DNA from: Malacoraja senta
Lineage: Eukaryota
Reading direction: 5' to 3'
Assembly (NCBI GenBank): GCA_038087875.1
Contig: CM075992.1
Coordinates: 2,296,001 to 2,360,000 of the forward strand
DNA length: 64,000 nt
Both the position numbers and the translations under genes were made by a program. Under the pieces are notes generated by a model. The model made no database searches. It had not been told where the DNA came from and worked only from the letters and a program-made list of their open reading frames with translations. Each line of letters starts with the position of its first letter. The first letter of the stretch is position 1. Positions 5,041 to 41,800 of the stretch are shown one piece after another.

Positions 5041-5545
5041 ATAGAAACATAGGAACATAGACAATAGGTGCAGGAGTAGGCCATTTGGCCCTACGAGCCA
5101 GCACCGCCATTCAATATGATCATGGCTGATCTTCCTCTTCTTCTTCTTCTTGCGTCTGGCGTGCACAGTCCAAAGTTGTAGTTCTATTTGATCTTATTTG
5201 ATTGTGCATTCGTCGAAACAGGGCGGACCACGTGAAGGTTGCAATCTTCCCAGCCCGTCATGGCTGATCATCCAAAATACCCCGTTCCTGCTTTCTCCCC
5301 ATATCCCTTGATTCCGTTAGCCCTAAGAGCTCTATCTAACTCTCTCTTGAATACATCCGGTGAATTGGCCTTCTGTGGCAAAGAATTCCACAGATTCACA
5401 ACTCTCTGGGTGAAAACGTTTTTCCCTCATCTCAGTCCTAAATGGCCTACCCCTTATTCTTAAACTGTGTGACCCCCTGGTTCTGGGACTCCCCCAACAT
5501 GGGGAACATTTTTCCTGCATCTAGCCTCTCCATTCCCTACAGAAT
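5041..5545 (-). mobile_element. CR1-type LINE 3' fragment hosting an HDV-like retroposon
   Basis: Reverse complement of the CR1 tail, interrupted at a duplicated tcatggctgatc. Confidence 0.85.
5132..5257 (-). ncRNA. HDV-like-ribozyme-headed short retroposon, copy A
   Basis: 12-bp TSD tcatggctgatc (5120-5131 and 5258-5269); minus strand gggctggg-aa-gattgca-acc-ttcacgt-ggt-ccgccct-gtttcga-cgaa-tgca; (aag)n tail; small deletion affecting P2'. Confidence 0.75.
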
Positions 5546-29796: not shown

Positions 29797-30147
29797 GTTT
29801 AGAGATACAGAGGGGAAACAGGCCCTTCGGCCCACCGAGTCTGCACCGACGAGCGATCCCCGCACATTAACGCTAGCCTACACCACGGACAATTTTTACA
29901 CTTACACCAAGCCAATTCACCCACAAACCTGTACGTCTTTGGAGTGTGGGAGGAAACCGGAGTTCTCGGAGAAAACCCTCACGGTCTCGGGGAGGGGGTG
30001 GAAGATTGCAACCTGCACGTGGTCCGCCCTGTTTCGACTAATGCAATCAACTCGACGTGCACAAACGGAAGATCAAATAGAACATGTTGTCCTACAACTT
30101 TAGGCTGTGCACGCCACACGCAAGAAGAAGAAGTCTCGGGGAGAACG
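29797..30147 (-). mobile_element. V-SINE fragment hosting HDV-like retroposon copy B
   Basis: SINE interrupted at a duplicated gtctcggggag. Confidence 0.8.
29995..30132 (+). ncRNA. HDV-like-ribozyme-headed short retroposon, copy B (138 nt; ribozyme 29995-30048)
   Basis: P1 GGGGUGG/CCGCCCU with G1-U wobble; P2 GAUUGCA/UGCAAUC; P3 ACC/GGU; J4/2 CUAA; 11-bp TSD gtctcggggag at 29984-29994 and 30133-30143; (aag)n tail. Confidence 0.8.
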
Positions 30148-30534
30148 AGTTCCGAGCAGCTCATAGCAGCTGAACCCTGTTTTACCTGGGGAGGGGCAGT
30201 GGCGTTTTACACAATGATTGTCAGAGGCGAAACAGAAAGTGACAACGAGTTTAACGTGACAATTCATTTGTAGATTTAATCAGTTCCAAGAAATCAAAAA
30301 TACTGCAGTTGCTGGAAAGGTGACAATTGAAACAGAAAATGTGAGACATACTCTGCTGGTCAGGCATTGTCTGTGGAGAATGAAGCAGAATTTATGTGAA
30401 GTTCAGTGGAAAGGACATCGTCTTTGAAGATTCATTCTGTGTGGTGCCTTGTGACATATGCTACCTGATCTGCTGAGTGTTATCACTACTAATTACTTTC
30501 ATTTCAATTCAAAGAAAAAAACGGGTAGTCTCTA

Positions 30535-41314: not shown

Positions 41315-41800
41315 CCATGGTGGCGCAGCGGTAGAGTTGCTGCCTTACAGCGCTTGCATCGCCAGAGACCCGGGTTCCATCCCGACTACGGGTGCTGTCT
41401 TTACGGAGTTTGTACCTTCTCCCCATGACCGCCTGGGTTTTCTCCGAGATCTTCGGTTTCCTCCCACACTCCAAATTCATACAGGTTTGTAGGTTAATTG
41501 GCTTGGTATAAGTGTAAAGTGTCCCTAGTGTGTGTCGGATAGTGTTAATGTGTGTGTGGGGGGGGGGGGGGGGAGGATGGGTGGGAGATTGCAACCTTCA
41601 CGTGGTCCGCCCTGTTTCAACTAATGCAATCAACCCGGCGTGCACAATCAAATAAGCTCAAATAGAACAAGTTGTCCTACAACTTTAGGCCGTGCACGCC
41701 ACACGCAAGAAGAAGAATGTGTGGGGATCGCTGGTCGGCACGGCCTCAGTGGGCTGAAAGGCCTGTTTCCGCACTGTATCTCTAAACTAAACGAAACTAA
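41315..41800 (+). mobile_element. V-SINE hosting HDV-like retroposon copy C
   Basis: SINE tagtgttaatgtg..ggggatcgctgg is interrupted. Confidence 0.85.
41578..41717 (+). ncRNA. HDV-like-ribozyme-headed short retroposon, copy C
   Basis: tgggtgg-ga-gattgca-acc-ttcacgt-ggt-ccgccct-gtttcaa-ctaa-tgcaatc; (aag)n tail; tgtgtgggg duplicated; poly-G upstream. Confidence 0.75.

Follow-up and report, generated by a model that had tools for sequence, protein, structure and literature searches.

Non-autonomous retroposons that keep, at their 5′ end, a ribozyme of the hepatitis delta virus (HDV) type inherited from an autonomous parent are an already known kind of mobile element. In trypanosomatids, the pairs NARTc/L1Tc (with the motif Pr77/L1TcRz) and RIME/ingi each include a derivative that retains the parent’s 5′ HDV-like ribozyme together with its 3′ end, and internal deletion has likewise left a 5′ ribozyme end and a 3′ end recognised by the reverse transcriptase in R2 SIDEs (PMC3414825) and in the RTE-derived Bov-A and WALLSI3 (PMC5786205). 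Among long interspersed nuclear elements (LINEs), four clades (RTE, Ingi, Vingi and R2) are described as the only ones from which bipartite non-autonomous elements are known, and Vingi is not among the ribozyme-bearing clades that the same source lists (PMC5786205). Here we analyse a 138-nt retroposon of Malacoraja senta which opens with a predicted HDV-like ribozyme. It lies in a stretch of 64,000 nt (assembly GCA_038087875.1, contig CM075992.1, positions 2,296,001 to 2,360,000 of the forward strand), hereafter called the window, and its coordinates are counted from the first base of that stretch.

Three further systems are relevant to this locus. Vingi-1 is a compact single-frame element without RNase H (2026 review, PMC13708176), and the Vingi clade is known to spawn internally deleted derivatives, including those of Vingi-1_EE; SINE2-1_ACar and SINE2-1_AMi contain Vingi 5′ parts, and the human genome has fossil Vingi copies catalogued as X12_LINE. 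The mammalian CPEB3 ribozyme (Rfam RF00622) is a single conserved intronic copy and has been described as lacking outgroups. A recognised class of HDV-like ribozymes dispenses with the P4 domain; its members, about 50–60 nt long, are found in metagenomes (drz-Mtgn type) and phages (theta) beside tRNAs, and their origin and role have been called undetermined (PMC10879173).

The retroposon is, with good probability, a bipartite derivative of an autonomous LINE of the same genome, devoid of an open reading frame of its own, in which a predicted ribozyme would fix the RNA’s 5′ end. Judging from sequence, the parent LINE is most likely a member of the Vingi clade with one frame of ~1,000 aa and a length of about 3.2–3.4 kb. 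The element spans 29995–30132 on the plus strand and sits inside an older, very abundant repeat (29800–29994 and 30133–30160). A preliminary description made from the letters of the window had placed it between 11-bp direct repeats and had it end in (aag)n; both are seen, and the duplication was recovered again, abutting the first base (G1). The parts of the element and its other copies in the window are as follows, where P denotes a paired helix, L a loop and J a joining segment, and where L133 and L093 are the LINE copies used for comparison.

29984..29994, plus strand: 5′ copy of the target-site duplication (TSD), gtctcggggag, directly abutting G1
29995..30048, plus strand: 54-nt minimal HDV-like ribozyme motif (CPEB3/Vingi type), predicted to cleave immediately 5′ of G29995; its helices covary with those of related LINE 5′ ends
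29995..30001, plus strand: P1 5′ strand, GGGGTGG
30002..30003, plus strand: J1/2, AA in this copy and GA in the older subfamily
30004..30010, plus strand: P2 5′ strand, GATTGCA
30011..30013, plus strand: P3 5′ strand, ACC
30014..30020, plus strand: L3, TGCACGT in this copy; the family majority, TTCACGT, is the L3 of the Rfam CPEB3 consensus
30021..30023, plus strand: P3 3′ strand, GGT
30024..30030, plus strand: P1 3′ strand, CCGCCCT; the common variant G30026A converts U5·G32 to U5-A32
30031..30032, plus strand: GT after P1, the P1.1 partner of L3; GU also stands in the Rfam CPEB3 consensus
30033..30037, plus strand: 5-nt linker TTCGA at the place where a P4 hairpin would be (22–43 nt in relatives)
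30038..30041, plus strand: J4/2, CTAA (CGAA in the older subfamily), whose C30038 is the putative catalytic residue
30042..30048, plus strand: P2 3′ strand, TGCAATC
30049..30073, plus strand: segment common with the 5′ untranslated region (UTR) of the parent LINE, which in L133 runs on to the start codon
30074..30091, plus strand: middle segment (~18 nt), with no match in L133 or L093
30092..30121, plus strand: segment common with the 3′ end of the parent LINE, on the basis of L093; the LINE stop codon TAG is at 30101–30103 and the remainder is a ~20-nt 3′ UTR
30122..30132, plus strand: (AAG)n microsatellite tail, aagaagaagaa
30133..30143, plus strand: 3′ copy of the TSD
5132..5256, minus strand: second family copy, of the deletion subfamily GAATGCACAATC, with TSD gatcagccatga
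41578..41717, plus strand: third family copy, of the older subfamily, with extra G-rich bases at the 5′ junction

Every pairing that had been proposed for the first 54 nt is present. P1 is made of seven pairs, including the wobbles G1·U36 and U5·G32, and starts at the G of the predicted cleavage site; P2 consists of seven Watson-Crick pairs, and the order of P1 and P2 gives the nested double pseudoknot of HDV-like ribozymes. P3 (3 bp) closes the 7-nt L3 and is followed directly by the 3′ strand of P1 and by GT. The third position of L3 is a C, able to pair with the G after P1 (P1.1), and C30038 (C44), a putative catalytic residue by virtue of its position, stands in CTAA with TGCAATC directly after it. 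The preliminary description had additionally seen a vestigial P4 capped by UUCG, which has to be given up: it would use G37 and U38, required for P1.1, as well as the proposed catalytic C44, so that the consistent parse is one in which P4 is absent and TTCGA serves as the linker. These features were cast into a strict descriptor (a 7-bp P1 with no more than one mismatch, 0–4 nt in J1/2, perfect P2 of 5–8 bp, perfect 3-bp P3, L3 of 6–8 nt containing C, G after P1, and C-N-R-A ahead of the P2 3′ strand), which has a single match in the two strands of the window, at 29995.

The element belongs to a large and young family. Searched against the whole assembly (1.94 Gb, 6,182 contigs), the 138-mer gave 1,634 first-look candidates, and the 40 that were scored are all 97–100% identical, 37 of them covering positions 1–138. 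An exact 35-mer of the ribozyme core occurs 1,730 times (888 + 842; reversed control 0) and an exact 18-mer of the tail 4,530 times (2,293 + 2,237). Near-identical sequence is also present in sequencing runs under nine organism labels. The two other window copies noted beforehand were found again, at 5256..5132 on the minus strand and at 41578–41717 on the plus strand, and they typify two subfamilies. Members of the older one are ~96% identical to the copy at 41578–41717 and have GA as J1/2, mostly CGAA as J4/2, and a different middle. In the deletion subfamily, typified by the copy at 5132–5256, the 3′ strand of P2 is bulged by 2 nt. The bulge is left by a deletion of 16 nt between two TGCA repeats, which recurs in ~20 of the 47 matches in which the ribozyme core is joined to bases foreign to the element. 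Of these 47, all 30 that were inspected in full are deletion or rearranged variants of the element, the other 17 having been judged from the 32-nt matched stretch only. Likewise, the 14 matches in which the tail follows foreign bases look like deletion variants in their 24-nt matched stretches, and no other (AAG)n-ended repeat occurs in ~160 kb of local sequence.

The copies of this family begin at one place. Two samples of 30 copies each, young and older, were picked by full-length similarity, and GGGGTGG follows the flank directly in 29 of the young and 25 of the older copies. A third sample, independent of the 5′ end, took the first 40 places in the list of tail-pattern matches: 31 of these begin at position 1 of the consensus, three at position 2 and one at position 3, the other five (L093, L096, L097, L112, L116) being truncated or of another nature. 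The discrete 5′ boundary at the predicted G1 that had been described is thereby borne out, with 35 of 40 tail-anchored copies starting within positions 1–3. Exact duplications end close to G1 as well: within −2 to +1 in 28/30 young copies (TSD of at least 7 bp) and 20/30 older copies (at least 9 bp), and within −1 to +1 in 25 of the 35 copies of the tail-anchored sample that are full-length. The offsets of −1 or −2 arise where the target itself continues with G, and the remaining copies have duplications that are mutated or unrecognised. Furthermore, in contigs of four sequencing runs with four organism labels, similarity ends at 29995 in 25, 24, 136 and 165 contigs, respectively, and matching ceases at 30130–30133; agreement of the upstream flanks is only 0.35–0.40, which means that these contigs stem from many different loci. 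With TSDs of 9–14 bp and no coding capacity in its 138 nt, the family has the make-up of a bipartite non-autonomous LINE.

Sequence variation is distributed in keeping with the fold. Among 36 unbiased full-length copies, variants reaching at least 10% occur in the ribozyme at position 8 (J1/2), position 32 (U·G to U-A), position 41 (linker, a CpG) and position 45 (the N of J4/2), and no common variant breaks a pair. The non-majority fraction is 0.049 at positions 1–54 vs 0.081 at 55–129. The base at 30085 is private to the copy at 29995–30132.

Both ends of the element were traced to a LINE. Its 3′ end was found in L093, a locus of the tail-anchored sample, where a LINE reading frame ends in ...LAWMSTLDLQL (at length, ...HIVNDCPLRNFPGGIKAIHPVIDAVLAWMSTLDLQL) with its stop codon inside CTTTAGG and is followed by GCTGTGCACGCCATACGC and (AAG)n, i.e., by the element’s ~25-nt 3′ UTR and tail. 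The sequence upstream in L093 recurs as a loose end at 30092 in contigs of another organism, and the LINE 3′ end is itself repeated in the genome (481 first-look candidates; 40 scored at 94–97% identity). Protein P0001 ends in a translation of this tail, ...AVHAIRKKK; P0002 is named reverse transcriptase by its source; and P0003–P0040, ~1,000 aa in length, combine an endonuclease with a reverse transcriptase and are encoded on contigs of 3.2–3.4 kb. The only domains of P0003–P0040 are PF03372/PF14529 and PF00078; RNase H is absent, as in the Vingi layout. More distant protein matches of the parent family do carry RNase H.

The 5′ end was found through the N-terminal 290 aa of P0003, which match a close LINE family at 63–77% identity, mostly in 5′-truncated copies, and further families at 44–49% and 34–40%, whose open frames reach 1,014 aa. 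The only near-complete copy of the close family, L133, begins with GGGGTGG, a 51-nt insertion, and then AA GATTGCA ACC TTCACGT GGT CCACCCT GT TTCGA CTAA TGCAATC; AACCCGAGGTGCACAAACAAATAGAT... comes next and the start codon is reached after 52 nt in all. The motif and the next ~25 nt of the element thus match the 5′ end of this one LINE. The element combines the first ~80 nt of a LINE with its last ~30 nt and tail, and is therefore a bipartite, internally deleted LINE derivative. Of the two LINE termini that had been suggested as a search target, L133 supplies the 5′ end and L093 the 3′ end; the LINE tail stands, and the possibility that the segment is an internal piece of a LINE 3′ UTR falls away, given that the motif stands at a LINE 5′ end, ~52 nt before the ATG. 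L131 and L132 represent a second deletion derivative, which retains the UTR through the start codon. In the element, CGTGCACA (30057–30064, derived from the 5′ UTR) is the exact reverse complement of TGTGCACG (30107–30114, derived from the 3′ UTR), and the two are paired in a fold of the 138 nt. The full LINE has these complementary stretches at opposite ends of its RNA (in L133, GGTGCACA), so the RNA ends might pair.

Comparison with related LINEs carries much of the support for the fold, given that P2 and P3 are invariant among the young copies. Besides the close family, four lineages from this genome and from metagenomes have the motif just upstream of a related LINE frame, on the same strand:

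L136/L137 (this genome): P1 GGGGATC/GATCCCT; P2 GGTAGAA/TTCTACC; P3 GCG/CGC; L3 TTCACGT; P4, a 24-nt hairpin; J4/2 CGAA
L158 (metagenome): P1 GGGGAGT/ACTCCTC; P2 TTGGATCA/TGATCCAG; P3 GCG/CGC; L3 TTCGTGT; P4 region of 28 nt; J4/2 CCAA
L154 (metagenome): P1 AGGAGG/CCTCCT; P2 GACAGGT/GCCTGTC; P3 ACC/GGC; L3 TTCACGT; P4 region of 22 nt; J4/2 CTAA
L138 (this genome): P1 GGG(A)CTGC/GCAGCCT; P2 ATACAGA/TCTGTAT; P3 ACC/GGT; L3 TCCCCGT; P4 region of 43 nt; J4/2 CCAA

Across the five lineages, P1, P2 and P3 differ in sequence yet remain complementary, P2 being distinct in all five (GATTGCA/TGCAATC in the close family), while the single-stranded core, i.e., L3, the G after P1 and C-N-A-A, is constant. 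Covariation of P1–P3, proposed earlier as a check, is thus found between lineages; within the family it comes down to the U·G to U-A change in P1. In L154, AAC ATG stands directly after the motif. Several of these parses were hand-guided and then checked by script, since a relaxed automatic descriptor returned mostly noise: its matches were for the most part long in J1/2, inside reading frames and on the wrong strand, and were discarded. L134, L135, L140, L144, L155, L210, L218 and L171 show no convincing motif in the stretch examined, and their true 5′ ends perhaps lie outside it. L138 (321–417) belongs to a third LINE family, with 37% N-terminal identity to P0003, a 986-aa frame and GG after P1; it has only weak Rfam HDV matches (21.9 and 21.3 bits).

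These results suggest the following course of events. An internal deletion leaves the first ~80 nt of the LINE (the 54-nt HDV-like ribozyme and part of the 5′ UTR), a short middle, and the last ~30 nt with (AAG)n. A copy would be transcribed by host read-through or from an internal promoter, and the ribozyme, as the fold, the conserved core and the DNA 5′ ends suggest, would cut directly 5′ of G1, so the RNA would begin at the first base of the element. The LINE protein, presumably acting in trans (as the 3′ end common to LINE and element, the tail and the flanking TSDs suggest), would recognise that 3′ end and tail, nick the target and reverse-transcribe the RNA up to its 5′ end; the outcome would be a full-length copy between duplications of 9–14 bp. 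The sequences show the family, its boundaries, the parent LINE and the fit and covariation of the fold; that the form lacking P4 is catalytic, that transcription is by read-through and that the LINE protein mobilises the element in trans are the steps that we infer.

Several points weigh against this interpretation. Cleavage is predicted from the starts of DNA copies and from the fold, and the sequencing runs covered all consist of assembled contigs, the RNA labels of X15–X18 being guesses. Rfam yields no match at gathering score anywhere in the window, and 29900–30250 is without a match to any of its families even when E is raised to 10; the element escapes these models because it has no P4. 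Nested-only energy folding is no better than for shuffled sequences (54-mer, z = −1.24; 138-mer, z = −0.37), a method blind to pseudoknots and uninformative here. Inside the family there is almost no covariation, P2 and P3 never varying. In the deletion subfamily, copies with the 2-nt P2 bulge are flanked by TSDs, so that a perfect P2 is perhaps not required or the deletion recurs; the subfamily, in other words, has either stayed mobile or arisen repeatedly. The single parent-LINE 5′ end compared, L133, carries an insertion of another repeat (51 nt) in J1/2. Among the other lineages, L154 parses with a P1 of 6 bp and a single mismatch in P3, a bulge is needed in L138, and L136 and L137 each show copy-specific mismatches. 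Of 13 metagenome relatives complete at the 5′ end, none has an HDV-type Rfam match, and a descriptor scan of 80 metagenome loci gave one match with short J1/2 (L158), to which L154 was added by hand parse.

The strongest competing explanation is that the motif is an HDV-like homologue that is catalytically dead without P4, with an internal promoter starting at G1 responsible for the sharp 5′ end and the 5′ region retained for some other reason, e.g., protein binding or RNA stability. The minimal form without an Rfam match and the TSD-flanked copies with bulged P2 would both suit this explanation, as would the precedent of L1Tc, whose Pr77 region (the first 77 nt) has been described as both promoter and ribozyme (PMC3383444). 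On the other hand, variants at the subfamily level spare all helices, and the lone variant at a paired site restores a Watson-Crick pair; the catalytically relevant single-stranded core is unchanged relative to CPEB3-type relatives; and HDV-like ribozymes without P4 are already known (PMC10879173). We therefore regard a dead motif as unlikely.

A second alternative, that the HDV fit is due to chance and that the element is an ordinary repeat with a LINE tail whose head is unrelated, is close to refuted and highly improbable. It could draw on the non-significant folding z-scores and on the descriptor, which had 100 matches with P2 of at least 5 bp in 149 dinucleotide-preserving shuffles (9.54 Mb), so that a match somewhere in 128 kb is not rare. 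The observed match, however, begins on the first base of the element with a 7-bp P2; the shuffles contained 12 matches with P2 of at least 7 bp, i.e., a chance of ~1 in 800,000 per position. Moreover, the same architecture stands upstream of LINE frames, with other helix sequences, in L133, L136, L137, L138, L154 and L158, and sister copies pass RF00622. Last, a classical short interspersed nuclear element (SINE) with a polymerase III head (tRNA, 5S, 7SL or snRNA), suggested by the short length, high copy number and LINE-derived tail, is refuted, as no Rfam family, and hence no tRNA head, matches 29900–30250 at E up to 10, in agreement with what had been noted before, and as in L133 the head runs on into the 5′ UTR and start codon of the parent LINE itself; the name bipartite non-autonomous LINE suits the element better than SINE.

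Taking the element as a LINE derivative with a predicted ribozyme, we compared it with the CPEB3 ribozyme. The likeness claimed at the outset is real: sister LINE 5′ ends pass RF00622. The element itself has no RF00622 match, falling short of the 35-bit gathering cut-off, and the TTCGA linker stands where a P4 hairpin would be. L136 (G000:C4:35489620-35489970, minus strand) and L137 (G000:C8:937550-937980, minus strand), both full-size CPEB3-type ribozymes at LINE 5′ ends, score 40.7 and 52.6 bits, respectively, against the cut-off of 35 bits, and the LINE frames behind them are 1,008 and 1,014 aa long. In both, 4–5 tandem partial units of 26 nt (GATCAAGGTAGAAGCGTTCACGTCGC) precede the ribozyme, so that the P1 5′ strand is far upstream of the last complete unit. 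A genome scan with RF00622 scored 59 of about 102,000 rough first-look candidates; 51 of these 59 match at E ≤0.001, 39 are above the cut-off, and the best reaches 64.2 bits. Eight of these precede, by 29–59 nt and in the same orientation, protein matches to a LINE N-terminus, and RF00622 found nothing in 14 control genomes. Many of the matches are just 60–65 nt long and may be variants with short P4 or further non-autonomous derivatives.

The particular matches to CPEB3 noted earlier proved accurate, since L3 UUCACGU, the CCCUGU junction and, in the older subfamily, J4/2 CGAA are those of the Rfam consensus; together with the double-pseudoknot topology, these are the features that element and CPEB3 ribozyme share. 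The element differs in lacking P4, in its helix sequences and in existing as thousands of dispersed copies at a retroposon 5′ end.

For the Vingi connection, a supplement of Kojima 2018 prints Repbase Vingi 5′ ends from gharial, crocodile, sea urchin and amphioxus (PMC5786205), and in the 5′ ends printed there, Vingi-2_Gav, Vingi-4_Crp, Vingi-2_SPur and Vingi-1_BF have the core ...AGCGTTCACGTCGC...CCCTGTCAG...CTGCGAAT..., as do the LINE 5′ ends here. Compared by eye with the Rfam CPEB3 consensus, the printed 5′ end of Vingi-2_Gav (gharial) agrees at 51 of 54 compared positions outside P4. P0003, a relative of the parent LINE, is 34–37% identical in its N-terminal part to the CPEB3-type LINE families. 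We therefore consider the parent LINE probably Vingi-like, on the basis of 5′-end likeness, domain layout and this N-terminal identity. Of the partners guessed in the preliminary description, Ingi/Vingi, its first choice, fits best: Vingi 5′ ends share the core, and the LINE encodes one protein of ~1,000 aa that lacks RNase H. With the Vingi clade the parent shares the compact single-frame layout of endonuclease and reverse transcriptase without RNase H, the internally deleted derivatives and the 5′ core; the ribozyme of the element’s family differs in lacking P4 and in its P1, P2 and P3.

Other known systems differ in several respects. NARTc/L1Tc and RIME/ingi, likened here by description only, belong to another host kingdom and clade, with a 77-nt motif doubling as a promoter and with a poly(A) tail. 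R2 is site-specific in rDNA, whereas the present family is dispersed; RTE is another clade, and RNase H is present in the parent family’s distant protein matches, as it is in I/Ingi-type LINEs. The minimal HDV-like ribozymes known so far share with the element the lack of P4 and come from metagenomes and phages, in contrast to a position at the 5′ end of an animal retroposon, and the motif of the element is visibly derived from a P4-bearing lineage.

In the literature searched, no text links Vingi to a ribozyme, or the CPEB3 ribozyme to a retrotransposon. The presence of a ribozyme in Vingi-type LINEs and the amplification of a P4-less form to thousands of copies in an animal genome appear to be new in that literature, to which the comparison was confined, and the bridge between LINEs and the CPEB3 ribozyme likewise appears new there. 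We lean, by a modest margin, towards the view that the CPEB3-type ribozyme is an ancestral 5′-processing module of Vingi across deuterostomes, that the ribozyme in the CPEB3 intron is an exapted Vingi 5′ end, and that the 54-nt P4-less form is a natural minimisation which still defines the RNA 5′ end. If this is true, a minimal HDV-like ribozyme would, with this P4-less form, be linked for the first time to a function in eukaryotes.

Amplification on a vertebrate scale with the 54-nt P4-less motif as the sole head would indicate a natural lower size bound for a working 5′-processing module, and the family offers a eukaryotic context for minimal HDV-like ribozymes. Connecting LINE 5′ ends directly through sequence with the CPEB3 ribozyme of mammals makes the origin of that ribozyme a testable question. 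Vingi UTRs serve as templates in gene-writing platforms (PMC13708176), for which a self-cleaving 5′ UTR module would be of practical relevance.

Several minor observations were made along the way. Extra runs of G or partial GGGGTG duplications stand between TSD and G1 in the older-subfamily copy of the window (41555–41577), in L133 (251–270), in L032 and in L122; they look like untemplated or template-switch additions made as reverse transcription ends. L066 is rearranged, with the reverse complement of the element’s own middle upstream of the ribozyme and that of its P1 downstream, and looks like a hairpin or inverted-duplication product. The pairs L041/L044, L049/L050, L074/L075 and L131/L132 have identical flanks at different places; they are segmental or assembly duplicates, and copy counts are therefore slightly inflated. 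Beyond 29978, the contigs of all four runs read on as ...ACGCAGGTCACGGGGAGAACG (host repeat), and the X14 contig that skips 29983–30133 may be just another copy of that repeat. More than 50 fragments of the repeat that precedes L112 lie in the window alone. In the metagenomes, matches to the histone 3′ UTR stem-loop lie upstream of related LINE frames in L218 (2203–2249 and 2518–2564) and L155 (551–596), scoring 33.6 bits (cut-off 34), 22.9 and 26.7 bits, and may reflect insertion beside histone genes or a captured stem-loop.

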